A DNA stretch of 61,533 nt, filler included. It is 9 parts of 9 records of this genome, joined end to end, with 100 filler letters (N's around TTAATTAATTAA, not from the genome) between each part and the next. Parts side by side here need not be neighbours in the genome. Positions count along the whole stretch, not along the records: positions 1 to 15,217 come from SRR7504441_1131; positions 15,318 to 20,231 come from SRR7504441_1135; positions 20,332 to 27,342 come from SRR7504441_1136; positions 27,443 to 35,503 come from SRR7504441_1169; positions 35,604 to 42,556 come from SRR7504441_1194; positions 42,657 to 46,354 come from SRR7504441_1196; positions 46,455 to 49,972 come from SRR7504441_1197; positions 50,073 to 56,805 come from SRR7504441_1198; 1 more part is not named here. The stretch is one strand, 5' to 3'. Each line of letters starts with the position of its first letter. Within the stretch, counting starts at the first letter, position 1. The notes under the pieces are model-generated. The model was given only the letters and a program-made list of their open reading frames with translations. It did not search any database and was not told the origin of the DNA. This document shows positions 188 to 61,047 of this stretch, in pieces. The position numbers and the translations under genes were made by a program.

Positions 188-1483
188 TCATTTGGTGATG
201 GTGACGTCGCTGCACGAGTTCCAAACCTGGGTCGACTCCTCGCAGTCCCACCGCCAGCCGAGCACCCAGTCGCCCGCTGGCAGGTCGGCCGGCAGCCGCA
301 GTGTGTCCACAACATCAACCTTGTACAGGTCTCCGTCGCCACTCCCAGAGCACTTGCACGGCCAAGTTCCCTCGGAGCGGTCATGCCCCGCCGGAGTGGG
401 CGGGCGCACATGCGCGTTGCGGCAGGCGGCCGGTTCATCGCATACTGGGTTGTAGCTCGAGCCCCAGTTGTACCATTCCCACGGCCCGCGCGGGAACGGT
501 CCACGGCGCCAGGTGGAGCCTTCGGGCATCGTGCCGACAGAGACGTCCGTGGCGTTGAACACGAGCTCTTGCCCGCCCTTGCCACCCCAGCGGAGCATGC
601 TCAAGCCGTCGGCGAACGGGACGGGGGTCTTCTGGAAGCACTGCTCACTGAGCTCCTGATCGGCAGGGCAGAGGCGGTACTGGTAGCCACCGCCATGCCA
701 GGCTTTTTGGACCCAGGAGACCCCCACCTCGTCGCCAGCGCGCCAGACCACGCCGGATGGACGGGCCGGCAGCTTGCTGCCCAGGTCGCCGCGCTTGGCG
801 TGGACGGTAGGCTGGTAATCGCCGCCTGCAGCTGCCGGGCCTTGGCCAGGGAGGACCCCACCAGCCAGACCGCACGCATCGGTCACCGGGGCCGAGCCCG
901 GGGCGCGCCATGGTGCAAACTGGAAGAAGTCGGTCTCACTGTGGCAGGGCGCGTCGATGTTGAGGGTGCGCAGCTCCCGGGCGCAGATCGTAGCATTGCG
1001 CTTGGGCACCTTGCAGATGGACAGCCGGCTGGAGCTTGGGTCGTCCGGGCGGGCGGCATGGTCGATCGGGTTGGGGCGCTTGGGGTCCGGCTGGATCCCG
1101 CGGGTAGGGTCCTCCCAGTCGGGAGCGTTCCCCTGGCCGGTCCAGATGAACTTGGGGTGCACCACTTGGCCGGTCCGGCCGTCGCACTCATCGCACGAGA
1201 TGTCTGCCCCACAGCCGGTCAGCGGACACACCGGGCGGGTCTTACCGCAACCGTTGTTGAACCAGAAGCAGGCTTGCCCGTTGTTGCCCGATACGTTGCG
1301 CGGGTCGGCAGACGCTGAGTCCGGGATGGCGCACCAGAACATGAACGGGATGGCCCCGGGGACGGAACCGTTCCAGGGGGCCACGGAGGCGTCGATGGCC
1401 TGCCGTGGTGGAGGCCAGGACACCGAACCGTGCGACATCGCGGCGGGGATGGCCAGCGCCAAGCACAGCCAGGTGAATGCCAT
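188..1483 (-). CDS. Secreted LPMO-like His-brace copper protein (one 42-nt intron, 1204-1245)
   Basis: Signal peptide MAFTWLCLALAIPAAMS is followed directly by His (HGSVSWPPPR). The second His lies in WHGGGYQYRLCP and the C-terminus reads WRWDCEESTQVWNSCSDV. An in-frame GTAAGA...CTGAC...CAG intron sits inside the ORF. Confidence 0.8.
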   Translation of the reverse strand: MAFTWLCLALAIPAAMSHGSVSWPPPRQAIDASVAPWNGSVPGAIPFMFWCAIPDSASADPRNVSGNNGQACFWFNNGCGKTRPVCPLTGCGADISCDECDGRTGQVVHPKFIWTGQGNAPDWEDPTRGIQPDPKRPNPIDHAARPDDPSSSRLSICKVPKRNATICARELRTLNIDAPCHSETDFFQFAPWRAPGSAPVTDACGLAGGVLPGQGPAAAGGDYQPTVHAKRGDLGSKLPARPSGVVWRAGDEVGVSWVQKAWHGGGYQYRLCPADQELSEQCFQKTPVPFADGLSMLRWGGKGGQELVFNATDVSVGTMPEGSTWRRGPFPRGPWEWYNWGSSYNPVCDEPAACRNAHVRPPTPAGHDRSEGTWPCKCSGSGDGDLYKVDVVDTLRLPADLPAGDWVLGWRWDCEESTQVWNSCSDVTITK

Positions 1484-1730
1484 TCTTTGATTGTGGATCA
1501 GGACGTCCGTTCCACATCACCGGCCTAGAAGGAGCCGGTCAGCATGGGTCAGCATGCGCGGCATGCGTTTTTGAAGAAGATAAATCTTCATCTACTTTAT
1601 TTCGAGGAAATAGATCCACATGTACAGGGATCAGTACTAATGTCTCAGTTGACCGGCATAATTAAGCCAAATACTGGTAACTGTAATGACCGGATCAAGA
1701 TCGAATTTTGGTACAATCGTGAGAGTGAGC

Positions 1731-2990
1731 TCAGCCCTTGCCCTCGAGCGCATCGAAATAACTCATAACGATCAGCACGCTGAACACGGCTATCTCCACT
1801 ATAATCAGCAGCACACTCGCCAACCTGAACTTGACTGCAAGCAGCCCCTGGACTGCCTCCAGCCCGGCTTCCCCGCCGCTCTGCACAACATCCGGCACCT
1901 CCGTGTTGAGCGCGCCCTCGACTGCCTCGATCCCCTGATTCAGCCGGCTCATGGCCACGTCTGAGGTCTGCTGGATTGTCTCAGCGTAGAGTTCGTCACC
2001 CCGGCCGCTTGCCCAGTCCACATAGGCAATTCTCCCAAGCCTGTGGAGCCGGGCCGCCATCAGAATCGAAGTCCAGGCCGAGTAGGCCGGTTCCAGGCTC
2101 ATCTGGAGCCCCCAGCAGAGCAGCACCACCCCGGCGTCCAGTCCGAGCCTCGGCTTGGTACACAGCTCACCCAGACCAATAAAATAACAATGCAGCAGCG
2201 TATCAACCAGGAAAAGCCAGTAAATGTCCGACCGCACCTGGTAGAGCGCCTCGGCGGCCGATGGCTCGTCCAGCCAGGTCTCCCACAGCGAGTCCGGCCC
2301 GAACTCAAGCAAAACAAACGCTACGAACATCCCGGAGACTATCAGCGTCAGCCCGACTACGTACACATGCACCAGTGGGTGGTCCAAGTAGAAGCGGACT
2401 CTCTGCAAGTACCAACCGGGCCGGTGGTTGAGGTCCTGGAAGTACTCCCAGTAGGTGCCGGCGTTGTACAGCGCGTACGGGATCCGGAGGCAGATGAGCA
2501 GTCCTACCCAGTCGCACGCGCCACCCAGCCAGCACTGGGCCAACTCGAAGTAGAGAAGCACTCCAATAACACCACAGTAGAGCACGTACGAGAGCATGGT
2601 GAACAGCCGGATCCCGTACACCATCAACAAGCAGAGCACGTCTATCACTAGAACAGACAATATGAACCGCGAGCCACCCTGCAGCGCGTGCGAGAGCAGC
2701 TCGAGCTTTGCGGGCGGCCCGAACAGCCTGTACCCAATCATGGCCTCCAGCGTGATGAAGAGCGCGTCGAGCGTGATGAGCAACGACATGACCAGTTTGA
2801 AGAGTGGGGCCTCGACCAGCTCGGCCAGCTCGGCCCGCAGGTTGGCCAGCGTGACCCCCGTGTTCCGGATGGCCGAGAAGTCGCTCTCGGCCATCATCTT
2901 CTCCGGGTCCAGCTCGATCAGCGGCTCGGTCCGATCCAGCCGCGAGAGCATCCGCTCCTCCATCGGGCTCGGCTCTGTAGAGCGAGCCAT
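1731..2990 (-). CDS. Membrane protein with two tandem Hv1-like voltage-sensor (S1-S4) domains and a C-terminal TM helix
   Basis: LLITLDALFITLE resembles Hv1 S1 (LVVLDALLVLAE), and GLLICLR resembles the start of S4. The second repeat has LDAGVV (S3) and ARLHRLGR (S4). ATG at 2990. Confidence 0.7.
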   Translation of the reverse strand: MARSTEPSPMEERMLSRLDRTEPLIELDPEKMMAESDFSAIRNTGVTLANLRAELAELVEAPLFKLVMSLLITLDALFITLEAMIGYRLFGPPAKLELLSHALQGGSRFILSVLVIDVLCLLMVYGIRLFTMLSYVLYCGVIGVLLYFELAQCWLGGACDWVGLLICLRIPYALYNAGTYWEYFQDLNHRPGWYLQRVRFYLDHPLVHVYVVGLTLIVSGMFVAFVLLEFGPDSLWETWLDEPSAAEALYQVRSDIYWLFLVDTLLHCYFIGLGELCTKPRLGLDAGVVLLCWGLQMSLEPAYSAWTSILMAARLHRLGRIAYVDWASGRGDELYAETIQQTSDVAMSRLNQGIEAVEGALNTEVPDVVQSGGEAGLEAVQGLLAVKFRLASVLLIIVEIAVFSVLIVMSYFDALEGKG

Positions 2991-3080
2991 GGCCCCACCA
3001 ACCGACACGATTCAACAGGCCGGCTCCAACGTAAAAAAACCGACAAAAACGGTCACCGGTGGCGCCACCTGCAAGCAAAG

Positions 3081-3979
3081 ATGCCGATGGATGCTGAGAC
3101 GAAGGCGCGGCTGGCGGCCGAGCGGCAGGCCGCGCGCGAAGAGGTAGCAAAGCGCCGGGCCGCGGAGGCCAACGCTGCCCCCCCGCCGTCGGCGCCCAAA
3201 CCGCGCACGCGCTCCGAGTCGCAGACGGCTCTGGACCAAGACATCGAGAGGGTCGAGGCCTCCCCGCGCTCCAGGGGGGCCGTGGCCGCCTCCAAGCCCA
3301 AGGGCGCCGACCCCGGACCGGACGGAATCCCCGGCAATCCGCTCACGCGCAACCCGGACCGGAAAGTCCTCGACTGCGGGTTCGCGCAAAACGATCGTGT
3401 GGCGCACGCCAAGCGCGGGCCCGGGCTGGTCCTCGGGTTCAGCGGGGACATGGTGATGGTCCAGTTCGACTCGGAGCCAAACGGGAAGCACAACTATAAG
3501 CACGACAAGGCCCGGCGCTGCCTGAGCTTCTCGGACGCCCCATTCTCGGGCCAGAAGCCGGCTCCGGCCGCCAAGTCCAAGGCCTCCGACAGCTTCGGGG
3601 CCCGCCCGGCGAACCGGAGCGCGCGCTACGAGGAGGAGGAAGAGGAGGAGGAGAGCTCGCCCTCGCCTATCCGGGCCAAGCCCGTGAGCAAGCCGAGCAA
3701 ACCTGTCAGCCTGCCCTCTGCTAGCACCCTCAATGACGAGGAGCGCGAAGAGACCGACAGGTGTGCCGGTCGACCGGGCGCCGGCTGAGCTGGTTGGGCA
3801 GCGGTTTCGCCCAGGGGGATCGGGTGAAGCACACTAAGCGCGGACTCGGGAGGTGCATCGGATTCTTTGGAGAATTTGTGTTGATTCAGTTTGATGACGA
3901 ACCGCACGGCCGGCACAAGTATACTCATGAACAAGCCCGGAAGAAGGTCTCGATCATCGGCTGGGAGAAGCAGGCCTAA
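3081..3979 (+). CDS. Protein with two Tudor/SH3-like beta-barrel repeats (intron 3761-3801)
   Basis: Removing the 41-nt GT-AG intron restores a second repeat, GFAQGDRVKHTKRGLG, matching the first, GFAQNDRVAHAKRGPG. The spliced CDS is 858 nt. Confidence 0.7.
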
Positions 3980-4148
3980 GCGCCGGCTGGCTGCCCGTGT
4001 ACACTAGACACTGTGATTAACGAGGTAACAGACCACGGTCCCGCGTGGCAACCACTCTCAATCTCTCTCAATCAATTCGATTTACAAGTGAAAACATGCT
4101 GCATGACATTGTATTAAAAAGCCCTACTCGTACATGGGTTAGCACGTG

Positions 4149-6771
4149 TCACGTAGATTTTCTCACATGCGCTATCACCGCGAGTTCTATTCTCTCGAGT
4201 GCCTCAACTAACATCGCGCGAGGGCAAGCCACATTGATCCTCTGATAGTGAGCTGTTGGTGCACCACCAAATGACCATCCGTCACTGAGCTTGACCCTAG
4301 CTTTCTCGAGCATGAAAACACACAACTCCGATTTCTCGCCGCCACAGGTAGCATCCAGCCCTAGACCAGCACAATTGAGGAAGACAAGGAAGGACGCTTG
4401 AGGCCGAACCACTCTGATCTCGGGCAGCCGCTCCTTGCAGAATGCCTCAGTGAACTGAATCTGGCTCTCAAAGTAACGGCACACCCGATCTCGCCACTCC
4501 CTGCCGTTCTGATAGGCGGCGACCATCCCGACAGTGGCAAAAGTGCTCCCAAAGTGCGCGTACGTATGCTCGACCACTGACAAGTACTTCTTCCGGTGGA
4601 CTGGGTTCTGTAACACCACGAACCCACTATGAAGTCCGGCCAAGTTCCAAGTCTTCCCCGGCGAGGAGGCCGTCATTAGATCGTCGTACTCGACTTGCTG
4701 GCATACCAGCGCCATCGGGACATGTCGCTGGCCCCACAGTGTCAGATCTGAATGGATCTCGTCGGCGATGATAAAAACTCCGAGCTCCTTACACAGCGAA
4801 GCCACTGCGAGCAGTTCGGCTCGAGTCCACACTCGGCCGTACGGGTTATGAGGAGAGCACCAAATCAGCGCCTTTACGTGTTCGGCTACGAGCGCAGCCC
4901 GGAGGTTTGTCATATCGAGCGCCATTTGACTGTCTGGGCTGTCAGGAGCAGCAGCAGCTACGATCAGCCGCCGACCGGAGCCGGTTATTGCTTGCTGCAG
5001 CGGAGTGTAGAGAGGTGATATCAGCGCAATTGCGTCGCCGGGCTGTGTGAAGGCGTGCAGTCCGTTGACTGTGGCTGAGACAAGATTGCCAGTGAAAACA
5101 AACTCATCCGCACCGACCCGCCATCCGTGCTCCTCCTCCAGCCACCGCGCCACCGCCGCCCAGAGCTCGGTCGGCTGGATTGTGTAACCAAAGCACGGGT
5201 GGGTGGCCCGCGCTTGGATTGCACTGAGCACGGCCTGGCAGACTGGGAGGTCCATATCTGCTACCCACATGGGCAGCACTCCGGCTGGACAGAGGTTGTA
5301 CTTGACACAGTACGAGTCAGTTCGGTCGATTGTCTGTTGGAATTCGGAAAACTGGTCGGGGCGGGCGCTCGCCCCTCGAGCCGCCCGCCCTGCACGCACC
5401 ACAGCGAGCGCAGCCTCGGCCTCTTCGCGGGCAGCAGCCGCCGTTCGCCTGGCTGCGGCCATCGCGGACTGCGGGCCCTCGTTGGGCTCAAGCGGCTGCT
5501 CGGCTGCGCTTGTTGGCTGCTTTAGTCCTGCCAGCTCGACCTCCAGCTTAGCCACCACCGCTTGCAGCCTGGACTGCTCGGCCTGGCTCTCGGCCAGCTG
5601 TGCCTCTAGCACAGCCGTCACCGATTCCGACCTCAACTGCTCCTCAGCGGGACCACCCTCAGTTGTGCCTGCAGCGACCGGTCGGTCTACGGAAGCCTCA
5701 GCGGCCGCTGCAGGCTCAGGCATCGGTTCCGGCTCCTCGGCGGCAGCGGCTGTAGCTGATCGTTCAATAAGAATATAAGGGTCCTCCGAGGTGGTCTCCC
5801 TCTCAGTTGCGCTTGCTGATACCAACTCGGTCTGATTCTCAGCCGCCGCCTGGGCTGTCACAGCCGCTGGCCTCGTCTCCTCTTGCAGCAGCGCTTGGCC
5901 TGACCCACCGTGGTTAGCGCGAGCCTGCCGTGTGTGAGGTGCCTTCTGGTCCGATTAGCTTGATGCAGGCAGCTCGCAGCTTCTTAAACCATGCGCGTGT
6001 CCGCTTGGGCACCTCGCCTTTGGCAAAGCTGCGCATGAATGCGTTGAGCTTGGAATCTACGTGGTTGATTGTGGTGATGGTGCACCCCTCGGCCGTGGCG
6101 CGTACCAGAGTGCAGCTCGTCATGATCACCCCGCTGCACCCAACCCTCACAGCACAGCCCAGCCGGGGCCGCCACACCGCTTGGGCCCCTTCTTCACCGG
6201 CGCAGGCGCTTGGGGCAGCCCGCTGCCGTCGACGTACACGGTGGCTTCGTACCCGTCGCCTCGTGAAATCCGGCTCGCATCCACGAAATCCCGGTCGTCT
6301 ATCGGCCCGGAGCCCTGGTATCACTCAACCCGAGGAGGGAGCAGGGAGGACAGGCCTTGTATAGCGTGCGGGTCACTGCAGTCGCCTCGTCGATCGGCTC
6401 CAGACTGCAGTACACTACCTCCTTGTCCCACCTGCCAGCTCCCTGCAGGCCCGGCAGCAGCCGGCGCACTCTCGCCGCACGTCCAGCTGGAGGGCCTGAG
6501 CAACCGTCTCGAGCCCAATATCGGTGAAGCTAGTCTTGGCTCGGATCTGGCCGAGCGCCTGGGCACACTGGCTGCGGCCGGCGCACCATCGGGTCCTTGC
6601 TGCCCGGCACTGCCCGGCTCTCGATCTGGAGCTCCTTGAACTTGGATTTGACCGGCTTCCAGCCGTCTGACTGGTCGGCTTCGAGAGACCATAGCCGTTC
6701 GAACGCCTGCCGCCCTCTGTTCGCCCCACCTGCTCGGCCCGCACCTCCGCAAACCGGGCTTCGATATCCAT
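4149..6771 (-). CDS. START lipid-binding domain fused to a MalY/PatB-type PLP-dependent C-S lyase/aminotransferase (about 792 aa, 6 introns)
   Basis: Introns at 6707-6744, 6547-6586, 6432-6469, 6315-6355 (GC-AG), 6134-6177 and 5900-5942 (GC-AG) give DGWKPV, RREWDK and DDRDFVD (START). The last exon has PMWVADMD, SPHNPYG, ADEIHSD and SPGKTWNLAG (PLP lysine). The spliced length, 2379 nt, is a multiple of 3. Confidence 0.8.
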
Positions 6772-6987
6772 TGACCGTGCCGTTAGGCCCGCCTTTGCAA
6801 GTGGGGGGGTCAAAGTGAGGGTAAGGCTGCAGCCTAATGGGGTACGTAGATCTCGGCCCCTTTTTTTATTACGCTCATGTAACGTGCATGGCCTTTTCCC
6901 GTAATACATGTGTTTGAACATATTTCATGTACCTAATCACTACCTAATCACACTTCACACAGTCCGCAGTGCCGCTTGTGTTCACGA

Positions 6988-8496
6988 TTAGTCTGCCTTG
7001 CTGCTGATCTTGGTGCCGTTCTTGAGCTTGGGCGTCTCGAACTCGCTCACAGTGCAACCAGTTGCCACAAGCCTCTCGAGCAGCGGCCTGCCCAGCCCAC
7101 ACGCAGGCGTCCACACCCCGCCCTTGGACGTCTTCGACTGAGCCTCTGCAAGCAGCAGCCCCGATTCAATGAGCATCCTGGCCGTATCCACGTAGCCGGG
7201 GTCCGTTGGGAAGAAGATGCTGGCCTGGCCACGAGCCCCGCCACAGCCCCGACCAAACGCCGTGACCTTGAGGAAGCCCTTGGCCATTGAAGCCGCCGAC
7301 GGCCCTTGGCCAGGCGAAGGCAGGGTCTTGCGCAGCACGTACTTGAGCGGTGGCAGTGCCATCGCAGTGCCAAAGTAAAGCATTGAGATAAGGTCAACCA
7401 GCCCGGCCTTGAACGAAGGGTACACCTTGGCCTCGTGGTAGCTGAACGGTGCGCCCGAATACCCGAGCACGGCACCCGACCGGCGGACGGCGTTGATGTT
7501 GCAGAGTGCCATGACGAATGGGCCGCACCAAGCCCCGAACTCGGACGAGTACGAGAGGAACTTGGCCAATTGATCGCGCACCGACACGCCCTTGCTCCCA
7601 TCGACGGTCTTGAGCAGTGGGTCGAACCCGAGTGCCGCCCGGTGCTGGACTGGCCTCTCCAGGCTTGCGAACAGGGTCTCGATTGTGCCTCCGGAGGGGG
7701 CGGACCGGATCTCATCGTAGCAAGAGATCGACGAGAGCTCGTCTCCGTTGGCCTTGAGCCCGTCGGCGAGCATCATGGTGATCAGATCCCACGGGATGCA
7801 GTCGTGCCCGCAGCAGTGCACTATCCGGGCCCCGGTGCTCCGGGCGGTATCGTCATGCATGTCTATCATCTGGCGGACCCACGCGATCTCTCCTGTGATG
7901 TCTGCGTAGTGGGTGCCGTTGGTCGCGCACACCGCCACGAGCATGCTGCCATACCGCGCGAACGGCCCGACGGTGGACGCCACCGCCTTGGTGCTCCTCG
8001 CCAGCTCGGTCAGTTCGGCCTCGGAGTCGGCGTTGGCCTTGATCAGCGGCAGCTCGGCCAGGGCAGGGTCAATCTGGCAGAGCTCCTCCCGTACGGCCTC
8101 CAGCTTGCTCACGGAGCGGCCGGCGATCGCCCACTGCACCGAGTTACCGTACTGCCGGGCCATATACTTTGCCGCTAGGCCTCCGGTGAACCCCGTAGCG
8201 CCGAGGAGGACCAGATCGTACTTGCGGGCGGCCGGCGGCGGGACAGGCTCAGCCGGGATAGCGCTGGTGGGCGCGGGGGGCATCCGTGCCGGCTTGGAAG
8301 GCGCGACCAGCCGGACCAGCCGAGCCAGAACGGTCCAACAGATTGCGAAAGGAAGGAGGACCACCAGCCAGATGGCCAGCGCCACCAGCGAGATCGCCAG
8401 GCGCGAGAGCCCACCGTCGCCGGGCAGCCGGCATCCGTCCGGCAGCGGCTCGCCGGGGGCCACTTGGGGCGCCGCTTTGGTCTCGTCTCCGCTCAT
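6988..8496 (-). CDS. SCCPDH: Saccharopine dehydrogenase-like oxidoreductase with N-terminal TM segment
   Basis: GATGFTG Rossmann motif, IAGR, VGPFARYG, YADITGE, CGHDCIPWD, SGGT and DPGYVDTARML. The likely ATG is at 8496. Confidence 0.85.
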   Translation of the reverse strand: MSGDETKAAPQVAPGEPLPDGCRLPGDGGLSRLAISLVALAIWLVVLLPFAICWTVLARLVRLVAPSKPARMPPAPTSAIPAEPVPPPAARKYDLVLLGATGFTGGLAAKYMARQYGNSVQWAIAGRSVSKLEAVREELCQIDPALAELPLIKANADSEAELTELARSTKAVASTVGPFARYGSMLVAVCATNGTHYADITGEIAWVRQMIDMHDDTARSTGARIVHCCGHDCIPWDLITMMLADGLKANGDELSSISCYDEIRSAPSGGTIETLFASLERPVQHRAALGFDPLLKTVDGSKGVSVRDQLAKFLSYSSEFGAWCGPFVMALCNINAVRRSGAVLGYSGAPFSYHEAKVYPSFKAGLVDLISMLYFGTAMALPPLKYVLRKTLPSPGQGPSAASMAKGFLKVTAFGRGCGGARGQASIFFPTDPGYVDTARMLIESGLLLAEAQSKTSKGGVWTPACGLGRPLLERLVATGCTVSEFETPKLKNGTKISSKAD

Positions 8497-8593
8497 TGGT
8501 GGCGTGGGCGGGTCCTGAAGGAGGCCGGCCGGGTGTGCCTGGCGACCGTTATTCGATCGGGTTTCGACGCGACGCAACCGCACCGGGTCACAG

Positions 8594-15142: not shown

Positions 15143-15187
15143 TGAATGGACGCGTCTCTTGGGTTAATCAAGGGATTGCTCAGACAC

Positions 15188-52110: not shown

Positions 52111-52275
52111 CTACATGTACCGATCCTGCATGTAGGGCATAATTGAAACATAATAAAAATAACAACGATTACTTACTCGGAAGAGAGCACGGAATCTAAA
52201 CACTTACCGCAGTACTTAGAGAGTAAAGTAAGAGCGGCCCCGTCTTTATACAGTATACGTACATGCATACAAATA

Positions 52276-52291
52276 CTAACCCTAACCCTAA
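52276..52291. repeat. Short interstitial telomere-like (CCCTAA) motif
   Basis: CTAACCCTAACCCTAA in a convergent intergenic spacer. Confidence 0.5.
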
Positions 52292-52333
52292 ATTCAATGT
52301 CATGTACTGATCTATTGGATATACGCAGTAGTA

Positions 52334-53971
52334 TTATTGGGCAGGGGGGTCGTTCGGTGCCGGTCCGGGAACCCGATTCTGTTGTGCGGCTATGATCCTC
52401 GCCAGGCCAGCCTCCCAGCCTTTGAGTCCATCCTCTCCTCGTGCTGGTGCAGGCTGCAAGCCGCCGTGTCCGCCGATCCCCACAATTGAAGCCTGGTCAA
52501 ACTCCTTAAGTGCCCTCATGGCTTCCCACTGGGCTTCGCCTGCCATGTACAGCACCTCGAACTCACTGTCCTGCCCTGAACACCCCGGTGGGTCGCTGCA
52601 CCAGATATGCTGCTGGTGGTCAGGCATCCGAGCCAGATATTGCTCCAAGCTTGACAGCTTCCCTTGTATGCTCGATTCGAAGAGCATGAGCCGGGCTAGT
52701 TTGGTCCTGTTGGAGCTGTCGTGGGTCACTCCATAAGCGATCAAGTCCCCGAAATTACGCCAGAGCTGGACATGGGCTTCGTGATCTTCGGCCAGAGCTA
52801 GCAGCATCAGAATGCTCCTCCTGGCAAGCTGCCTCTTGACCACTTTGCAGATCTTGGAACCACTTTGCAGATCTTGCAGATCTAAGTCGGCACTATCAAC
52901 AACCCCTTGGATGAACGACAAGTGATACGGCAGCATCTCGAGGTCTGCAGCGTCCGAATGGAATTTGCAATCTAAGTAGAGCCGCAGCCCTTTCGTTAAG
53001 GAGCGCGGGCGTAAAGCAGGGCAAAACAGCAAAATGTACAGTTCGATTTGACCATTAACAGCGATGTGTTTGGTACTCGACGGCCTGGAAGGGTGCGTCA
53101 CCAGCCAGGGCATGACGAAATGCGACCAAACCCGGGAGCACATTCTGCCACTGACGGTAAGCTGATCACCTAATCGGAGCAGCCACGCGGCTTTTCGTCG
53201 CAAACTGGGACTGTATTCAAGGTCTGTTTCAGGCGACCAGCCATCGTGGGCTTCGGCCTCAAACGTGGCCCTGTAGTACTCCAGATATTCCTCTGGAGAC
53301 ACCTCGGCCGGCTCCCTCCGCCAGATCGGCTCCAACGTGCGCCCCTCAACCCAGCACGGCTCAGCCCCATCTGAATCCGTCCACAGCCGCACGCTATGTG
53401 CACCCGGCCTGCCGGTGCGGTGCATTTCGACCGCCCGCTGGAGCATCGCCGGCTGCAGGAACCCTTCGCACCCGGGCCGGAGCTGCAGCACCACCACCGT
53501 CCCCCGCCCCAGGCTAATCCTCTCGAAACCGGGCACAGGCCCCGCCGGCCCTGAAGTCAGGTCCGCGCCCGACACGCCGTCCGAGGCCAGCACGGCCTGC
53601 TCGAGCTCCCCATCCCCCCGCGAGTAGACCTCCAACCAATCAGCCAGGGCGAACGCCGTGGGGAATCCCAGGTTGTGGAAGTGGCTGTCGGGTGCGGCCG
53701 GGTCGCTCAGCAGGATCTGTCCCCACTTGTTCGGTCTGCTGACCAGCTGGTGCAGCGCTGTTAGGTCCATCCCGCATCCGCAATCCTGCACCGCCAGCCG
53801 GCCGCCCGACACGTGCAGCTCGACCCCGTTGAGGGACTGCTGCCCGCGCCACTGCTGTCGGTCGAGCGCCGCGTCGCAGTTGGAGAGGAGCTCGGCCAGC
53901 GCCTGCTCAGGCGGCACAGCCTGGCGGATCCGCGCGATGAGCGCTACCGTGTCCGGATGGAGCACCGGCAT
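52334..53971 (-). CDS. Divergent Hsp90-like protein (ATPase and middle domains; no C-terminal dimerisation domain)
   Basis: AELLSN, DCGCGM, RGT, PIWRREPAEVSPEEYLEYY, FIQGVVDS, HDSSNRTKLARL and SLEQYLARM. Confidence 0.8.
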   Translation of the reverse strand: MPVLHPDTVALIARIRQAVPPEQALAELLSNCDAALDRQQWRGQQSLNGVELHVSGGRLAVQDCGCGMDLTALHQLVSRPNKWGQILLSDPAAPDSHFHNLGFPTAFALADWLEVYSRGDGELEQAVLASDGVSGADLTSGPAGPVPGFERISLGRGTVVVLQLRPGCEGFLQPAMLQRAVEMHRTGRPGAHSVRLWTDSDGAEPCWVEGRTLEPIWRREPAEVSPEEYLEYYRATFEAEAHDGWSPETDLEYSPSLRRKAAWLLRLGDQLTVSGRMCSRVWSHFVMPWLVTHPSRPSSTKHIAVNGQIELYILLFCPALRPRSLTKGLRLYLDCKFHSDAADLEMLPYHLSFIQGVVDSADLDLQDLQSGSKICKVVKRQLARRSILMLLALAEDHEAHVQLWRNFGDLIAYGVTHDSSNRTKLARLMLFESSIQGKLSSLEQYLARMPDHQQHIWCSDPPGCSGQDSEFEVLYMAGEAQWEAMRALKEFDQASIVGIGGHGGLQPAPARGEDGLKGWEAGLARIIAAQQNRVPGPAPNDPPAQ

Positions 53972-54049
53972 GCCGCGAGATTCCCTCTGGTACCTGGTAG
54001 TTAACAGTAGATAATATAAAAAATGAGAAGGCCGAGGTTTCCCGGAGCA

Positions 54050-55516
54050 ATGCTGCGGACAATCACAGTGGCGCTCCTGTTGTCGGCGCTGTTTGGCACG
54101 GTGGCCGCCGGCCGCGGGGACGACCTCGCGGCGCTCAAGCGCGACCTAGCGGCGATCGTCGACGCCCGGGCTGAGCACTACAACTGCAGCTTCTCCATCG
54201 CCGTCCGCACCCCGGGGCTGGGCGACAGGTCGCTGGCCATTGGGTCGGCCGGGACCACTCCGGGCTCCCGGTACGCTTGGGGCTCCATAACCAAGATGTG
54301 GACGGGCGCCCACGTGATGCAGAAAGTGGCCCAAGGCAAGCTGGACTTGCATCAACCGGCGGCCCCGCTGGTGGATGCGCAGTTGGCCGCTATGCGGAAG
54401 GCCGGCTTCCCGGGGATGGACAAGTTCGCGCGGCTCAAGGATCTGTATGGGGAGCAAGTGGCCCAAGTGACGCTGCACGACCTGCTCGCGATGCAATCCG
54501 GCATCCCGGACTTTGATACGGTGCCCGGCCGCTCAGCGGTTGGCTGACGACCCAGGCGGCAGGCCAACCCGAGCCGGACCGGGAAAGATCTCGACCCGTT
54601 CAGGGCCACAGTGTACGCCAACCCGACGCGGAACTTCCTGGAACCCACCCTGATGTCCGAGCCCTGGGTGGCGACCGGCAACCTGAGCGGGTGTGAGGGC
54701 GACCCCGGCTGCCCAGGGAGTGGTTTCCACTGTGAGCTTACGCCCGATGGCGCTGAGCCGGCTGGGCAGACTCGTCCACCAACTTTGGGTTGCTCGGATT
54801 GATTCTTTCAGGGATGGCGGGGCAGCCGGATTACCGCAAGCTCAACCAGTGCCTTTGCTGTCCTGCCTGGCCTGAGGTTTGGTGGCAGGTCCACATTTAT
54901 TCCGGAACAGTATGCGTACCTGGCCGACCAGATCAGCTGGGCCGTGGCTGGCTCCCCGCGAGAGCACAAAGTCGTGCCCGGGTTCGACCGCACCGACTAC
55001 AACGGCCAGGATCCCAAACGAGACCCCGCGGGCGTCCCTGTGGTAGACGTGGCTGGGGTCTTTGCAGGCTACTCGGCAGCCGACTTCGTGGGCTCGGCTT
55101 CAGCAGTGGCGGACCTTGGATATGCACTGTGGGGCAAATCGAGCGAGCTGGTGCCGGAAAAATTCCGGGATCTCATGGTCCCAAATTTGACTTCGCACGA
55201 CTTCCGAAACGCGTTTTATGGCCTGGCAGCACAGAACGTTGGCCTCATGGGGGTGACTGGCGACAAGGGCGAGGCTGGCGTGGCGTACGGGCATCTCGGA
55301 GCAACGTACGGCTATGACTCGATTTTTGGGTACAATCCGACACTGGATCTTGGGATTGCGATCGCGACCAATATTGAGACCTCGAGCCAGACACAGCCGG
55401 CGGACGCTTTTTGCAGGGTGTTCAATCGGGTGAAGAACTACATCAACAAGGAGCGGGTGCAAGTCTGTGTGTATACCACCTATGGATACTACGGCGGGCA
55501 ATGCGTCTGCAAGTGA
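54050..55516 (+). CDS. Secreted serine beta-lactamase/PBP-like hydrolase (introns 54521-54562, 54732-54769, 54849-54888)
   Basis: Signal peptide, SxxK in GSITKM, LLAMQSGI, HYSSTNF (restored by splicing) and GHLGATYGY. The spliced length is 1347 nt. Confidence 0.85.
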
Positions 55517-55800
55517 TTCGGGGTACATGACATTGTAAGTGATTTCACCGGGTACGAGTATTCACCGGGTAGCATCGATCGCGATACGATCGCGGATTAG
55601 AGCTCGAACTCTATTGTACTTTTAGCTACGGTTGCGTTGTGAAGTGAGGTAATCGTTGATGTTTAAATCCTAACTAGTATAGCTTTCGGGGCCTTGGTGC
55701 ATCATTGAGTGAGACAAATCATGGTAAAATCATGGTCCGGTCATTGTGTTGTCTCGGCAATCAGAAGCCCAAGTACATACAATAAACATGATTGACTAGA

Positions 55801-56711
55801 TCAATCGAACGGATTTGCTCTTCCAGTCGCCGAGTTCAGAGACTCTATGCCCCTTGCATAGATGTCTGACCGCACCCCGGCGTTCTCGTTGTACTTGTTC
55901 TTTCCAGGGCCATTCATTTGGCTACCCATGTCTGGCCGGCTTCGGCTGTACAGCGCACGGGTGTTGTGCAGACGTTTCATAGTGCTCTTCTTCTCCGAAG
56001 GCTTGAGTCCCTGCTCGACCGCAACGATCCAGGTCTTACCTGCACACGCGTTACCACTGGCACGAATGCGTTGTCGTGCCTTTCTCTCGGAAAAACCCTT
56101 TCTCGCCAGCACCTCGCTGGACTCCACGGGCAGTAGGGGCACCCCAGCCCCCGGTGCCCACTGAGCCTATCAGCTTGACCTCCGGCAGATCATCATCCCG
56201 CTGGATCTTTGGAGGCGGCTTCTCCTCGGGCGCCTTCCGGCCGCCCTTGGTGTATCGTGCACCGAGCGTTTCATGTGCCCTCACAACCTGTCGACTGCTC
56301 AGCCCGGTACACCTAGCCGGCGAACGCACATTCCCGCGGGCGCCGGCAGACGAGAGGTAGCTCAGCAGAGTGGGCTGCTCGTGCAGCGAGTAGGAGGTGG
56401 CATCGAGTGCGTCGATACGTCGACCAGGGGTCTCCGACACCTCGCTGCCTGCGTACCACGAGCTGCCACGCTTCGTTCAGGCCCGGCCGGCCTCTCTCAG
56501 CTCACCCAGATGTGGTCTCGAACCCCGCCGTCGACTGAAGCATCGTGGAGGCGAAGGTGACCCCGGTGCACCCCAGCTGGCCGTATCCGGAGCTGGCGGA
56601 GGTCCGGGGCCGAAGCAATGAGATACGGGGCACCGGCGTCTGATCGGCCTCGTCCGGGTCACCCCGGCGGCGCCGCTCCTTGTCCTTCCGCTTCTTCTGG
56701 TGCAGCGTCAT
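55801..56711 (-). CDS. Hypothetical basic protein, multi-exon (probable GC-AG intron 56040-56079)
   Basis: ORF pieces can be joined by introns of about 40 nt. No family recognised. Confidence 0.45.
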
Positions 56712-56805
56712 GGTGGCGCTCCCGTCTGCGGCACCCGTCTGCGGCCGGCCGCTGTCGCTGCGACACCGGTGAGCGGCTGCGGCTGCTGCAAAGGTACCTG
56801 GCGTA

Positions 56806-56905
56806 NNNNNNNNNNNNNNNNNNNNNNNNNNNNNNNNNNNNNNNNNNNNTTAATTAATTAANNNNNNNNNNNNNNNNNNNNNNNNNNNNNNNNNNNNNNN
56901 NNNNN
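56806..56905. other. Artificial contig linker
   Basis: N44-TTAATTAATTAA-N44. Confidence 0.98.
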
Positions 56906-56977
56906 ATGTACACAAAAAGAAAGCCACAAAAAAAAATCCACCAATCAGGGTGCACGTTGGAATAAATTCTGAGCCAG

Positions 56978-59900
56978 ATGGCAAACAGAGGAGCCAAGTG
57001 GTGGCTCGCCATGGCCGTCCTCGCGGTGGTGGCGGCGCAGACGCCGGACGAAGCCGACTGTGGCAGCCTGCAGCAAGGTGGCTCGCCGCTGGCCGGCCGC
57101 GCCGCTGATCCGGGCTGGACAGAGGCCGACCAGGCCACCCAGGCGGCCTCCCTGGCCAGCCAGCGGGCGGCCGAGGCTCGCTCGCTGGCCAAGGCTCGGG
57201 GGCGCGAGATGCGTCGCGCTGCGGCCCGGGTCGATTCCCTGCAAGCCGGGGTGAAGGCCTTGTCGCGGGAGGGTGGCCGGCTCCGGCGGGATGCGGCTGC
57301 GGCGGACAACCGGGCCCGGGTGCTGCAGGGCGAGCTCCGGCAGGCCAAGCAGGAGGCCGGGGCCGCCCAGGTGAGCACCGACGCCAAGCACGAGCGAGAG
57401 GCGGTCGCCCGTCGGGCGGTGGAGTCCACAGCAGAGCTGGCGACAAACGCCAAGCGGCGAGTCGCTGGAGCGGTCAAGGAGGCCAAGGAGCTGGAGCGTC
57501 GGCTGAGGAAGAGCATGACTGAGGCCGCCACCGCCAAGGAGATGGAGAAGCTGCGCAAGGCCGAGGACGCCGAGAGCGGTTGGGCGCTCGGAGGTGGCCG
57601 GCTGAGCATGTGGGCAGGCGCCAAGGCTGAAGCCGAACAGATGGAGTCTGGGATGGCGGCGGCCGAGGCCAAGTTCGACCGGGAGCAGGAGCAGGAGGAG
57701 CAGGAGGCCAAGGCCCAGCGGGCGGCGGCGACTGAGGAGGCGATCAAGGGCCAGATGGCTGCCACCAAACAGGATCTTGAGGAGCAACAAGCGGTGGCTC
57801 TTATGAGAAAGAGCCTCTGATCCAAGGGCCGGGCAGGCGGTCCAGCGATCCAAGGGCCGGGCCATCCGGGAGGAGGCGGCCGAGCGGCTGGCGGTGCGGC
57901 AGATGACCGACCAGAAGGAGGCTGCCAAGCGGGCGGTGCGGCCCCGGGCGGGTTGATCAAGCCGGGTGCAGGCGTCGGAGGCGGTCAAGGCGGACGCCAT
58001 CAGCCAGACTTCCCCGCATACCATATCCGCCCGCGGGCACGCCGAGAGCGCAGAGCGGTTGGTCGAGTCGCTCGAAGATATGGTGCCTTGGAAGATACGG
58101 TTAGAGCGACTGAATCGGCTGCTGGCAGGTGAAGAAAGACAAGCTCCGTCTATCAGAGACCGAGGACCTGATGGAGGAGCGCCAGGCGGCGCTGCGAGAC
58201 CGGCAGAAGCGGCTGGACAGCGAGCGGACAGCACTCGAGGCGGCCACGGCTGCGCGGATCAGCACTGCGGAGGAGGTGGCGCTCAATCCGAAAAAGTCGG
58301 CTCCGGAGGAGGAGGCGGCGCCGGCAGTGGCGGTGACCAGTCCGGAGCAGCTGCGGCTGGACAAGGCGGAGGCTCTTGTGAAGCAAGACCAGCGCGAGGA
58401 AGCGCACCGCGAGCGCGAGCTCAAGCTGCTCAAGCAGAAGAGCGACCGCGCCAACGAGGCGCACCAGGCCGCCGAGGCCGCGCTCGAGGCCGCCAAGGAT
58501 GCCAGGGGCGACGCAGACGCGCGACAGAAGAGTGCGGACGAGCAAGTTTTGAGCGCCAAGCAGCGAGCGGATACAGCGCGGACTGAAGCGACTCAACTGG
58601 AAGCAAAGCACCAGCAGACGCTGCAACAGGCGGCAAACAAAGCAAAAGAGGCTGCGGTGGCCGCCCAGAAGCACGATCGAGCGGAAAGCGGTGCTCGGGA
58701 GGCGGCGGCAGCTGCATACCAAGCAGAGAGAGCAGCGATGGTCGCCAGTCACGTGGCGACCAATGCAGAGAGGGAGGCAGCCGAGGCTAAACTGAGGCTG
58801 GCCAAGCAGAAGAACGCCGAGGAGGAGGTGGCTGCCGCAGCCCGCCGGCAGCGAGATCGGCAAAGGAAAGCGGAGGCGCGCGCAGCGGCTGCTGTTCAGG
58901 CCTCTCAGGACGATGCGCGCAGAGCAAGCGAGCAAGTCTTGAGGCAGAAGGCGTTGTCAGCCAAGGCGGAGCGGGCGGCGGCCGACGCGCAGGAGCTGGA
59001 GGCTAATGCTGATCATGCGCGCAAGGCGATTGCGGACCAGCAGGCCGAGCAGGAGCGAGAGCGGGTTGAGGTTTGGACAGGGTGCAGCGAGCGACTGAGT
59101 GTGCTAATGCAGGCACAAGCGCAGAGCGAGCAGCAGTGGGAAGCGAACAAGGAGCGGGCACGGGCGGCTCAGACAGCGGCTGACAAGATCGAGGAGCAGG
59201 CAACTGTACAGGAAAACAAGCTTCAGAACACCCGCGCCCACCATCAAGCTGCAGTCTCTGCAGTGGAGGTGGCAACAAAGCAGGACCGCGATGCTAAAAA
59301 CAAGGCGGCTGAGGCCATGGCCGCAGTCAAACGGAAGGCCGAGGCAGATATCGAATCGCAGGCGATCAAGGTGGAGAAGTTGCAGAAAGATCTGAGTCCA
59401 ATCCAGGAAGAGGAGCAACAGGTGCGTATCAAGCGGGACTGTGGCTGACAGCGCTGGTGGCAGGCCATAGGCGGATTGAGCCAAGCGCAAGCTTCTATTG
59501 GCAGAGCCAGGACGAGAATCTCTGACGCGAGCGGAGAAGCCGAGAAGGACAAGGCTGAGGCTGCGCTTGTGACTGCGGAGGAGGCCGCGCGACAAGCAGA
59601 GATGGTGCTGCAGCAGGTGTGGCCCATGCCAAGCCCGATTGCTGAGGGGTGCATGGCCAGGCTTCTGGCAAGAAGGAATCTGCCCAGGGGCAGCTCAAGC
59701 AAGAACAGCAGCGGCTGACTCAAATCAAGAAGCTCGCAAAGCAAGAGGTGGACGGCGTGACAAGGGAGACGGAGCAAGCGGTACAAAATGGAGCCCTTGT
59801 GCTTGCACGAGCAATTGAACTCGAAAAGAAGACTCGAGCTGCGCTTGACAAGCAAGAAAGAGAGGCTGGTGTGCATAAGGAGCAAGCAGCCGCCGCACAA

Positions 59901-61047
59901 GACAGGGCTGATGGCCTGGCAAGCAAGGTACGCGAAGACCAAGAGCTAGCCAAGGTCCAACGGGACGCCGCAGCAAAGGCCAACGAGAAGCGATTGAATC
60001 AAGAGCAGGAGGCGGCTGTGCATAAGATGACGGCCTCTGTGGATCAGGTGAGCTACTTGGTGCTGTTTGGGCGCTAAGCCATCTGTGGTCCAGGCGGAGC
60101 TTGCCAGCGATAGTGCGCTGATGAATGCTGAATCACGACTGCAGCGTGCATCTGCAGAGTCGCAGAGGCTTGGAGCGCTCGTGTTGTCCAGCCAGGCGAG
60201 TGTGGTCGGTCTCAAGGATGAGCTGGCGGAGGCTGAGCGCAAGGTGACCTTCGATTCCGGGCCGGGCTGACAAGGAATCCAGGTGAAGGCTGCGACCACG
60301 GAAGCTGCAGACAGCAAGAAACAGTACGCTGCCCAGCAGATAAAGCTTGCTAAAACAACACAAGGGTTAGAGAAAAGGTTAGTCAAATTGTCCGAAAAGG
60401 AAGAGAACCTTGCCAAAGTGGCCGACTTGGCCAGGAAGACTGCCTCCCGCAGCAGGGCAGCTGGGTTGAAGGACGACCAGGCAGAGCAGGCGGAGCTCGC
60501 TTCGTACACTGCGGAACAGCGCTGGCGGAAGGCGGTCGATGTAATCAAGCAAGCTAAAGCTAGCGCGGGGGCTGCCAAGCAAGCGGAGGAAGACGCTCGC
60601 GAGCAGCACACCAGCGAGCAGCGCACGTTGCAGAGCTCATTGGAAGCGGCCACCAGCGAGCATCGCAAGTTGCAGAATGCGGTGACCAGCCATGATCGCT
60701 CTAGCTGAGGCTGCTGTGGATGCAGCTGGAGGCGGCCGAGAAGAAGCACCAAGAAGCAAAATTGGACGCGGCGCGGGCCCAGGGCGTGGCCAAACAAGCC
60801 GAGGAGGATCAGATGACCGCCGCAAGTGCGAAAGTGGACGCTCGAAAGCAAGCGGTGCGGCTTTGGTGTGCTGTGTTGGCCTTACCCTGCTGTCTTCCAG
60901 GCGCAGATGGCTGAGGAGCAAGCGCGGAATGCCCAAAGGCGACAGTTTGAAATGAACCGTCAAGTGCAAGCCGTTGCCGACCTCGCTGCAAACGCAGATG
61001 GATTGGAGGCTCTGTCGAGGCCAATTACGAGTAACTATGATAATTAA
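56978..61047 (+). CDS. Signal-peptide-bearing Ala/Glu/Lys/Gln-rich long coiled-coil protein (about 1185 aa, 12 introns)
   Basis: Introns: 57078-57122, 57579-57617, 57794-57836, 57936-57971, 58083-58128, 59071-59112, 59422-59463, 59617-59660, 60048-60093, 60244-60282, 60682-60725, 60855-60900. The spliced 3558 nt is one open frame. Confidence 0.75.

Follow-up and report, generated by a model that had tools for sequence, protein, structure and literature searches.

The genes of a compact, GC-rich eukaryote, a marine protist, appear to be interrupted by introns of about 41 nt, a minority of which start with GC rather than GT. These mini-introns were found in a 61,533-base stretch of DNA, called the window here, and are probably ordinary U2-type introns that have shrunk into a narrow length class and include a GC-AG minority, with no need for an exotic spliceosome. 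The window is not one chromosomal region but a set of nine separate contigs joined by eight spacers, each made of 44 N, TTAATTAATTAA and 44 N (Table 1), and gene order and distances across the spacers are therefore meaningless. Its GC content varies from 0.47 to 0.69 per 2 kb. All introns were called by parsing the DNA, from which their positions, lengths, motifs and the restoration of frames and domains are read directly; splicing is what these features predict.

The gene finder used for this parse combined codon log-odds, trained on the Pfam-matched parts of open reading frames (ORFs), with an intron model whose terms covered the donor flanks, a branch 7-mer, the acceptor flanks and the length. 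In the final run, GT and GC donors were permitted, an AG acceptor was imposed by the parser, and the better strand was chosen at each locus. This run called 77 introns, 65 with GT and 12 with GC; 73 of them are at most 60 nt long, with a median of 41 nt and a range of 34-57 nt. The first-pass annotation had counted about 70 introns, most of them 36-46 nt long, and this description holds, with 66 of the 73 short introns inside that interval. The lengths of the short introns modulo 3 (21, 29 and 23 introns) indicate no preference. About 20 GT calls have poor signal scores and are of low confidence. Two earlier settings of the gene finder were too permissive and were dropped: with a flat intron cost it called 94 introns, most of them implausible, and with a low penalty 386.

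The mini-introns look real. Because the length term was trained on the window, the run was repeated with a flat length prior over 15-300 nt, and the interval of 34-50 nt still held 51 of 68 GT introns. A composite pattern, G GT[GA]..CT[GC]AN..CAG with a total length of 34-50 nt, carries no coding information; it occurs 47 times on the two strands, compared with 16.5 +/- 4.9 times in 100 dinucleotide shuffles, none of which reaches 47. Moreover, removal of the introns restores both reading frame and homology, as seen for the kinase motifs and for the PRT6_C, Pkinase, PfkB, Hydant_A_N and Beta-lactamase profiles. The last three of these profiles are each divided between two frames in the DNA.

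The introns share short signals only. Each signal was counted with its own term removed from the scoring, one term at a time. At the donor, G occupies position -1 in 60 of 85 introns and position +3 in 57 of 85, C occupies +4 in 41 of 85, and +5 is G or C, which amounts to about 1.8 bits beyond GT. The filtered set reads (C/A)AG/GTGCG(C)C, where the slash marks the exon-intron border, with G at +5 in 34 of 62. The first-pass description of a system with almost no donor consensus thus captured the weakness of the donor and overstated it, G/GTG(C) being a consensus. Two further parts of that description, frequent branch sites and mostly absent polypyrimidine tracts, agree with the counts. CTNAN is present in 41 of 72 introns and CT[GC]AN in 36 of 72, where 8-20 nt separate the A from the 3' end, compared with 12% (0.119) and 10% of exon control windows; the branch-to-3'-end distances observed are 9-19 nt. 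The stretch from -14 to -4 is 47% pyrimidine, with T at 0.21 and G at 38%; in other words, it is G-rich and A-poor and holds no polypyrimidine tract. The acceptor itself is GCAG/G, with C at -3 in 69 of 92 introns and G at -4 in 51 of 92.

The signals are compatible with conventional splicing factors. The lack of a polypyrimidine tract is compatible with U2-type introns, as short or atypical tracts are reported in diplonemids too. The canonical U1 small nuclear RNA (snRNA) has a ACUUACCU-like 5' end and canonical U6 has ACAGAGA; G at -1, G at +1, U at +2, G at +3 and G at +5 are the positions with which the standard U1 5' end can pair. Since the donor positions kept here, including the frequent +5 G, could pair with canonical U1, neither an altered U1 nor an exotic spliceosome is required. 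At gathering thresholds, Rfam identified no RNA gene in the window, and so no snRNA. None of the 73 short introns has a U12-like donor ([AG]TATCC start), and AT, with 4 of the 98 calls made when all 16 dinucleotides were allowed, was no more frequent as a donor than the other decoys. Pairing between the two intron ends is not raised, with 4.96 of 12 positions paired compared with 4.76 in shuffled sequences across the same 73 introns. Their folding is unremarkable (mean z -0.41; 7 of 73 below -2).

These features would fit introns of a compact GC-rich genome that shrank until they formed a narrow length class, with a median of 41 nt and nearly all lengths between 34 and 50 nt. Recognition would then proceed by intron definition, in which the whole intron is recognised as one unit. 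The likely cues are a short 5' signal, (C/A)AG/GTG(C), a branch motif (GCTGAC, GCTGAG or CTCAC) whose A stands 9-19 nt ahead of the 3' end, a GCAG/G acceptor and the tight spacing between elements. In roughly 5-10% of introns, the T at +2 would have changed to C, most likely through GC-biased sequence drift, a cause also put forward for other GC-rich marine algae, and such GC donors may be tolerated behind exons with a terminal AAG or CAG.

The best-supported GC-AG candidate is located in a protein kinase gene on the contig 35604-42556. A hand parse of this gene, based on three-frame reading with borders fixed by hand, gave nine introns of 39-49 nt. After splicing, a single frame contains LGRGKFGETWEV, VCAAK, LLMELY, DLKPDN and DFG and ends at TGA. 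The candidate at 36406-36444 has no frame-keeping GT donor; the best GT-only solution removes the LLMELY exon within a 184-nt intron. The exon that follows the candidate matches positions 107-126 of the Pkinase profile and the helix alphaE/HRDLKP region of kinases in the Protein Data Bank (PDB). The first-pass statement that this segment holds an in-frame TGA, offers no usable GT and is indispensable to the kinase agrees with the gene score, which is 63.8 with GT donors only and 82.6 when GC is allowed. Decoding of TGA as an amino acid was rejected; TGA ends 8 of the 15 training genes (TAA 6, TAG 1) and the kinase gene itself. For the second candidate in this gene, 36240-36279, the lone frame-keeping GT alternative is a 19-nt intron (36261-36279), and the shortest of the short predicted introns has 34 nt. 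When the kinase was searched as a read-through of the 39-nt segment, its TGA replaced by X, no close relatives were found. In the Pfam set that contained the Pkinase test, 3 of 6 queries had no match, and the exon 36748-36891 gave only an unrelated weak one (Entericidin, E 0.16).

Two further genes appear to depend on GC donors. In the UBR-type E3 ligase gene, a GT-only parse truncates the gene, with a score of 19.1 compared with 42.7 when 22881-22924 and 21013-21052 are included. Past the point aligned to residue 1704 of human UBR2 (chain 9wbv_A, 1755 residues), 49 residues follow in the spliced form and 30 in the unspliced form; a PDB search with this last exon returned nothing. When GC was forbidden, a CG decoy took the place of 22881-22924, using the same acceptor and a donor 3 nt further in. 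In the START-aminotransferase gene, 5900-5942 joins an exon that matches START only weakly (profile 149-205 of 207, E 0.045) to a linker and the aminotransferase exon, and 6315-6355 is needed to hold the frame between two coding-like exons. The score of this gene is 104.6 with GT only and 135.6 with both introns. The exons flanking 6315-6355, in the START region, have no Pfam or PDB match, and Pfam gave nothing for 3 of 6 small exons tried.

The START-aminotransferase gene (4149-6771, minus strand) also has an unusual layout. An intron-rich N-terminal part with the weak START match precedes an intron-less aminotransferase domain, and all six introns lie at the 5' end. When metagenomes were scanned for the aminotransferase ORF, 80 loci matched, none of them more than 39% identical over residues 166-600. 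To judge by their names, most of these are gut, sediment or other environmental contigs, and none of the 80 has the intron-bearing N-terminal part. The gene may be one of bacterial origin fused to a eukaryotic domain.

Considered as a class, the seven GC segments named in the first-pass annotation (5900-5942, 6315-6355, 21013-21052, 22881-22924, 36240-36279, 36406-36444 and 56040-56079) all start with GC and end with AG on their own strand at the coordinates given there, and all follow an exonic AAG or CAG, as had been proposed. Six of them are supported, and 56040-56079, whose gene has no homology, is weak. The donors of the better-supported six are GCACCT, GCCTGT, GCGAGC, GCGCGT, GCGCCG and GCGGCT, none of which matches AAGT; intronic AAGT is wanting in the GT introns too. 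Exonic AG stands ahead of 6 of 6 better-supported GC introns and 27 of 62 GT introns (Fisher p = 0.010). With six such introns among about 70, the GC-AG share is far above 1%, again in line with the first-pass claim, and we estimate that 4-7 of the roughly 70 introns, or about 5-10%, are true GC-AG introns.

The specificity of GC was measured by opening the parse to other donors. When any G+N donor was permitted, 59 GT, 15 GC, 8 GA and 2 GG introns were called. With all 16 donor dinucleotides and retrained models, the 98 calls comprised 56 GT, 10 GC and 32 in total for the other 14 types (at most 5 each); at a signal score of at least -1.5, the numbers were 46, 6 and 9 (at most 3 each). The summed gene score gain from one extra donor type was 101.1 for GC, 70.0 for CA, 46.8 for CG and at most 27.3 for the rest. 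The CA, CG and AA decoys share acceptors with the GC introns, their donors being shifted by multiples of 3; those loci therefore need an intron and lack a usable GT. When GC was forbidden, 32 short non-GT introns were called, 12 of them with an in-frame GT alternative. A donor test based on coding potential only was without power (GT 9, compared with 1-11 for others in the 36-46 nt bin), and it was also passed by shifted pseudo-donors near true introns.

It is possible that the mini-introns are real and most GC-AG calls are parsing artefacts, the true GC-AG share being an ordinary 1-3%; this is considered unlikely. On such a reading, the UBR-type gene would end at 21013-21052, the START and aminotransferase genes would be separate, 36240-36279 would be coding sequence or represent a 19-nt GT intron, and none of the weak candidates would be real. 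Three of the six better-supported GC introns do admit another reading of this kind: a TAG stands two codons into 21013-21052, just past the end of the PRT6_C profile (451/451), suggesting a gene end; a stop follows 9 read-through codons in 5900-5942, suggesting two genes; and 36261-36279 is in frame. For six of the 12 GC calls, the gain stays below 10 score units and a GT alternative mostly exists, and the decoy donors take a non-trivial part of the calls (32/98), CA alone regaining 70.0 of the 101.1 score gain. Since the CA decoy scores so high, the exact 5' border rests on GC being the only well-known alternative donor. The composite motif with a GC donor is not in excess (29, compared with 39.2 in shuffles), as would be expected because few sites are set against a large background. 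The logos and counts are partly circular because the finder and the signal models were trained on introns from the window itself, and leave-one-out runs lessen this circularity at the price of more false calls (85-92 introns). Kinase profiles (helix alphaE) can also be aligned gap-free to the read-through of 36406-36444, and it is therefore the TGA that decides the case there. Finally, the sole RNA contig found, a 538-nt metatranscriptome contig (X3) that is 90-95% alike, maps to 55000-55553 and spans no predicted intron, and this lack of cover carries no information on splicing. On the other side, 36406-36444 combines an in-frame TGA in the middle of the kinase domain with the lack of a usable GT, and both 22881-22924 and 6315-6355 are internal to genes and change the reading frame. 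GC exceeds every decoy type in number and score gain, and when GC was forbidden, an in-frame AG/GC was available at 4 non-GT loci compared with 0 for AG/GA and 0 for AG/GG. The length past the UBR2 point fits the spliced last exon (49 residues, compared with 51), and a 19-nt intron would be far under the 34-nt minimum. At the non-GT loci, GC after exonic AG is the best-scoring and the sole conventional border, although the data alone do not fix it to the exact base.

A remodelled spliceosome of the kind suggested in the first-pass annotation is unlikely. It would choose 5' sites mainly by exonic AG and a fixed distance to the branch site and 3' end, its U1 would be divergent or dispensable, and its U6 pairing would be altered. 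The identity of positions +2 to +6 would then matter little, and the small donor information beyond GT (mostly -1 G and +3 G), the very narrow length distribution, and GC donors that lack a compensating intronic consensus yet all follow AG are consistent with such a machinery. Variation of U1 has a precedent in Sulcionema specki, for which a second U1 gene with a run of Cs as its 5' end is described (PMC12621601). However, exonic AG precedes only 27 of the 62 GT introns, so the system as a whole does not demand it. A standard U1 could also pair with the donor positions that are conserved. Moreover, algae with 14-56% GC-AG introns are described with no claim of an altered spliceosome in the available portions of the two reports (PMC4028052; bioRxiv 10.1101/2024.10.30.620910). 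It is very improbable that the non-GT introns belong to a euglenozoan-style nonconventional class with variable borders, known from hemistasiid diplonemids and euglenids, whose cut is set by pairing of the intron ends. Among the named relatives of the oxoprolinase, the hemistasiid Namystynia karyoxenos ranks first (55% identity), CA-type decoys fit the non-GT loci nearly as well as GC, and diplonemids have median introns of 37-42 nt, with about 97% noncanonical borders in hemistasiids (PMC12621601). Nevertheless, 56-65 of the called introns are GT-AG, AG ends every call (as the parser required), and GC alone stands out among the non-GT types in a search confined to AG acceptors. There is neither an excess of end pairing nor strong folding. 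The strand switches every 1-3 kb, unlike the long co-transcribed groups described for Diplonema papillatum (PMC10161547), and other best matches are to a dinoflagellate and a choanoflagellate. It is also unlikely that the window comes from a marine protist lineage with no sequenced close relative, whose spliceosome applies a ruler of about 41 nt, links a minimal G/GU to a branch site and acceptor after a G-rich tract, and accepts C at +2 after exonic AG. If this were true, 5' sites would be chosen by contacts with the exon end (U5/Prp8) and by spacing more than by U1 pairing, and the system would be a halfway stage from canonical introns to the border-free ones known in hemistasiid diplonemids.

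Ordinary U2-type mini-introns with a GC-AG minority combine two features, both of which are precedented, one in mini-intron genomes and the other in GC-rich genomes with many GC-AG donors. In Emiliania huxleyi, 135 of 241 hand-mapped junctions (56%) are GC-AG, some of them verified by reverse transcription PCR, and this is linked to a genomic GC content of 65% (PMC4028052). In Aureococcus and Pelagomonas, about 14-17% of introns are predicted to be GC-AG, compared with 0.32% in the lower-GC Aureoumbra, and GC content is likewise invoked; the same source gives about 0.3-2% for animals, fungi and plants (bioRxiv 10.1101/2024.10.30.620910). The first-pass assumption of about 1% as the usual level thus fails for GC-rich marine protists. 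Like E. huxleyi, Aureococcus anophagefferens and Pelagomonas calceolata, where the acceptor AG is fixed, the present organism has a GC-rich marine genome with GC at many donors. Unlike the pelagophytes, whose introns average 103-177 bp (bioRxiv 10.1101/2024.10.30.620910), it has a median of 41 nt. Its GC-AG share is also lower than in E. huxleyi and the pelagophytes (about 6 of 70 predicted introns), and among the matches listed, no window protein has a close relative in those lineages.

Diplonemid mini-introns resemble those of the window. Median lengths are 41 nt in Diplonema japonicum, 42 nt in Sulcionema specki and 37 nt in Artemidia motanka; in S. specki the donor motif is reduced to G/GT and the pyrimidine tract is the shortest, and the branch motif is variable and the spliceosome parts are conserved (PMC12621601). 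Diplonemidae have 97-98% GT-AG introns, whereas about 97% of hemistasiid introns are non-GT-AG with pairing ends (PMC12621601); in D. papillatum, introns are mostly GT-AG with a few GC-AG (PMC10161547). The window differs, with about 85-90% GT-AG, about 10% GC-AG and no end pairing. Its link to Diplonemea consists of one 55% match, and its gene order switches strand often.

Classical GC-AG introns compensate with a near-consensus AG/GCAAGT. The candidates in the window have the same termini, are presumed to be U2-type and show a stronger exonic AG (6/6 compared with 27/62), but they read GCGCCG, GCGGCT, GCACCT and so on, with no match to GCAAGT. The genomes of the ciliates Paramecium and Nyctotherus are AT-rich. 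Their introns of about 25 nt form one narrow class (PMC5014332), and a single very narrow and very short class, here as there, implies recognition across the intron. The ciliate introns differ in being shorter and in their AT-rich setting, and no raised GC-AG share is mentioned in the available part of that source. A limited literature search found no report that combines 41-nt introns, about 10% GC-AG and a G-rich tract before the acceptor, and a targeted one for GC-rich organisms with introns of about 40 nt gave nothing useful.

The host is characterised by its domains and relatives. The long ORFs encode eukaryote-type domains (protein kinase, UBR/PRT6_C, RPGRIP1-type C2, Ank-SAM, PTB, EF-hand) together with oxoprolinase, PfkB, aldo-keto reductase, DEAD-box helicase and HSP90-like middle domains, and the strand of the predicted genes changes every 1-3 kb. 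Near-identical DNA was found in marine or aquatic metagenome runs only. Top protein identities among the matches are 56-66%, to environmental sequences. For the oxoprolinase, the best matches are 55-57% identical; N. karyoxenos, at 55%, is the best named relative, and Nannochloropsis reaches 47-48%. The aldo-keto-reductase part has a best relative at 66%, with Polarella (dinoflagellate) and Acanthoeca (choanoflagellate) as the named ones at 48-49%, and for the DEAD-box part plants and Tribonema are equally near at 44-48%. The DEAD-box and aldo-keto-reductase searches thus indicate no consistent lineage, with plants, Tribonema, Polarella and Acanthoeca all at 44-49%.

A run search with the contig 50073-56805 gave three matching runs, two of DNA (word shares 0.36 and 0.06) and one metatranscriptome (0.05); the DNA in runs X1 and X2 is 95-99% alike. 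A contig from the DNA run X1, 95-99% alike, has 115 other letters in place of 158 bases at 52173-52332, between two convergent genes, and differs at many single bases elsewhere; public data therefore include another strain or population of this organism. The X3 RNA contig overlies the final part of the beta-lactamase-family gene, and 16 bases at 55516, beside the predicted stop, are missing from it; its probable source is a relative rather than this organism.

Intron density is very uneven. The kinase gene packs 9 introns into about 1.3 kb, and the gene 56978-61047 contains 11; a look-up of the latter's large exon 58114-59445 in the ESM Atlas gave scores of at most 0.82 only. The ORFs 28983-32351, 39378-42347, 52334-53971 and 1731-2963 have no introns. 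The oxoprolinase gene has two introns near its start and a low-score call (13823-13862) near its 3' end. Among the intron-less ORFs, 28983-32351 (minus strand) is an uninterrupted frame of 1122 codons with aldo-keto reductase and D-2-hydroxyacid dehydrogenase domains. Its halves match separate proteins, none of which spans both among the best 150 representatives, and the ORF represents a lineage-specific fusion or else a pair of genes that share a frame. The ORF 39378-42347 (plus strand, 990 codons) has an unusual combination of a DEAD-box helicase, PPR repeats and a TrmB-type methyltransferase. The HSP90-like ORF 52334-53971 (minus strand) matches only positions 115-338 of the 518-position HSP90 profile, with no ATPase domain detected; it represents either a truncated or divergent HSP90 family member or an incomplete model.

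Table 1. Contigs, spacers and predicted introns of the window. Introns outside the kinase gene come from the gene-finder parse; a slash separates exon from intron.
Feature	Position	Strand	Length (nt)	Donor start	Signal score	Remarks
Contig	1-15217
Contig	15318-20231
Contig	20332-27342
Contig	27443-35503
Contig	35604-42556
Contig	42657-46354
Contig	46455-49972
Contig	50073-56805
Contig	56906-61533
Spacer	15218-15317
Spacer	20232-20331
Spacer	27343-27442
Spacer	35504-35603
Spacer	42557-42656
Spacer	46355-46454
Spacer	49973-50072
Spacer	56806-56905
GT-AG	1204-1251	-	48	GTTGCG	-0.5
GT-AG	3761-3801	+	41	GTGTGC	4.3
GC-AG candidate, better supported	5900-5942	-	43	AAG/GCACCT		GCTAAC branch-like motif
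GT-AG	6134-6177	-	44	GTGTGG	0.4
GC-AG candidate, better supported by coding gain, poor signal	6315-6355	-	41	AAG/GCCTGT	-4.4
GT-AG	6432-6469	-	38	GTGCGC	1.6
GT-AG	6547-6586	-	40	GTGCGC	-4.4
GT-AG	6707-6744	-	38	GTGCGG	2.0
GT-AG	8863-8901	+	39	GTGGGC	3.9
GT-AG	9191-9230	+	40	CAG/GTGCCG	2.2	oxoprolinase gene; CTCAC, GGCAG; joins Hydant_A_N 2-91 and 106-175 frames
GT-AG	13823-13862	+	40	GTCTGT	-2.3
GC-AG candidate, weak	16146-16202	-	57	GCGTGG		gene score gain 1.0 over GT-only
GT-AG, low confidence	19539-19588	-	50	GTGCAC	-7.9
GT-AG, low confidence	19648-19738	-	91	GTGAGG	-2.5
GT-AG, low confidence	19840-19879	-	40	GTGTGG	-7.1
GT-AG	19957-19997	-	41	GTGCCC	0.8
GT-AG	20068-20109	-	42	GTCAGC	-2.6
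GC-AG candidate, better supported	21013-21052	-	40	AAG/GCGAGC	1.3	before last UBR-type E3 ligase exon
GT-AG	21114-21154	-	41	GTGCTG	2.6	flanks match PRT6_C 319-425, then 434-451
GT-AG, low confidence	21554-21632	-	79	GTGACC	-6.6
GT-AG, low confidence	21938-21977	-	40	GTGGCC	-7.3
GT-AG	22238-22279	-	42	GTGCGC	4.1
GT-AG	22515-22559	-	45	GTTTGT	1.5
GC-AG candidate, better supported	22881-22924	-	44	AAG/GCGCGT	1.6
GT-AG	25226-25266	-	41	GTGCGG	4.1
GT-AG	25400-25436	-	37	GTCAGC	1.5
GT-AG	26422-26460	-	39	GTACGC	0.6	PfkB kinase gene; between frames matching PfkB 81-192, 221-302
GT-AG	26790-26827	-	38	GTCGCC	3.2
GC-AG candidate, weak	28493-28538	+	46	GCGCTC	-4.1	183-nt GT alternative
GT-AG, low confidence	34546-34583	+	38	GTGCTC	-5.4
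GT-AG	35945-35984	+	40	GAG/GTGCCG	1.9	kinase; splicing gives LGRGKFGETWEV, GxGxxG loop
GT-AG	36041-36082	+	42	AAG/GTGCCG	0.9	kinase; after VCAAK
GT-AG	36143-36191	+	49	CAG/GTGCCC	3.3	kinase; hand parse and gene finder
GC-AG candidate, better supported	36240-36279	+	40	AAG/GCGCCG	2.6	kinase; restores frame into GTCLLMELY
GC-AG candidate, best supported	36406-36444	+	39	CAG/GCGGCT	2.8	kinase; in frame; GGCTGAG, GGCAG; in-frame TGA
GT-AG	36506-36544	+	39	GTGATT	0.3	kinase; splits DLKP/DN
GT-AG	36607-36647	+	41	GTCGGC	2.3	kinase; after DFGDSQ
GT-AG	36704-36747	+	44	GTGCCT	2.5	kinase; hand parse and gene finder
GT-AG	36892-36933	+	42	GTGAGC	0.8	kinase; hand parse and gene finder
GT-AG, gene finder only, probably false	37024-37061	+	38		-4.4	skips kinase-ending TGA
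GT-AG	37858-37898	-	41	GTGAGG	2.3
GT-AG, low confidence	38171-38212	-	42	GTGCTC	-5.2
GT-AG, low confidence	38278-38315	-	38	GTCACG	-5.0
GC-AG candidate, weak	38473-38506	-	34	GCGGGG	-4.1	52-nt GT alternative, same acceptor
GT-AG, low confidence	38688-38727	-	40	GTTCCA	-7.0
GT-AG	38834-38873	-	40	GTGCGC	1.8
GT-AG	38929-38968	-	40	GTGCGC	-2.4
GT-AG	44505-44538	-	34	GTAGTC	-1.2
GT-AG, low confidence	44764-44947	-	184	GTAGCG	-7.8
GT-AG	45353-45398	-	46	GTGCCG	0.5
GC-AG candidate, weak	45499-45536	-	38	GCGTTT	-0.1	41-nt GT alternative 45528-45568; gene score gain 4.5
GT-AG	45776-45812	-	37	GTGGGC	4.9
GT-AG	45946-45988	-	43	GTGCGC	2.9
GT-AG	46045-46087	-	43	GTGCGC	-3.9
GT-AG	47056-47097	-	42	GTGCGC	4.7
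GT-AG	47333-47376	-	44	GTGCGC	5.0
GT-AG	50591-50638	+	48	GTCGCC	0.6
GC-AG candidate, weak, atypical length	51023-51298	+	276	GCAAGC	-4.9	gene score gain 4.8
GT-AG	51863-51906	+	44	GTGATG	2.0
GT-AG	54521-54562	+	42	GTGCCC	5.3	beta-lactamase-family gene; between frames matching Beta-lactamase 43-110, 199-318
GT-AG	54732-54769	+	38	GTGAGC	0.2
GT-AG	54849-54888	+	40	GTGCCT	2.8
GC-AG candidate, weak	56040-56079	-	40	AAG/GCACGA	-3.7	103-nt GT alternative, same acceptor; gain 3.3
GT-AG	56288-56329	-	42	GTGCGT	3.1
GT-AG	56463-56505	-	43	GTGAGC	-3.9
GT-AG	56758-56797	-	40	GTACCT	1.3
GT-AG	57078-57122	+	45	GTGGCT	0.5
GT-AG	57579-57617	+	39	GTTGGG	3.1
GT-AG	57794-57836	+	43	GTGGCT	-1.8
GT-AG	57936-57971	+	36	GTGCGG	4.4
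GT-AG	58083-58128	+	46	GTGCCT	0.2
GT-AG	59422-59463	+	42	GTGCGT	6.6
GT-AG	59617-59660	+	44	GTGTGG	2.9
GT-AG	60048-60093	+	46	GTGAGC	2.8
GT-AG	60244-60288	+	45	GTGACC	4.4
GT-AG	60682-60725	+	44	GTGACC	-2.1
GT-AG	60855-60900	+	46	GTGCGG	-0.7

In practical terms, many of this organism's genes would be broken by gene callers that accept only GT donors and expect introns of more than about 50 nt, and with GT-only donors the kinase, the UBR-type ligase and the START-aminotransferase gene would each lose exons. The findings add a GC-rich marine lineage to those in which C at the +2 donor position is common, together with a 41-nt length class and a G-rich tract before the acceptor. They fit the view that genomic GC pressure, rather than a special spliceosome, drives the frequency of GC-AG introns, and their effect on open questions is modest.

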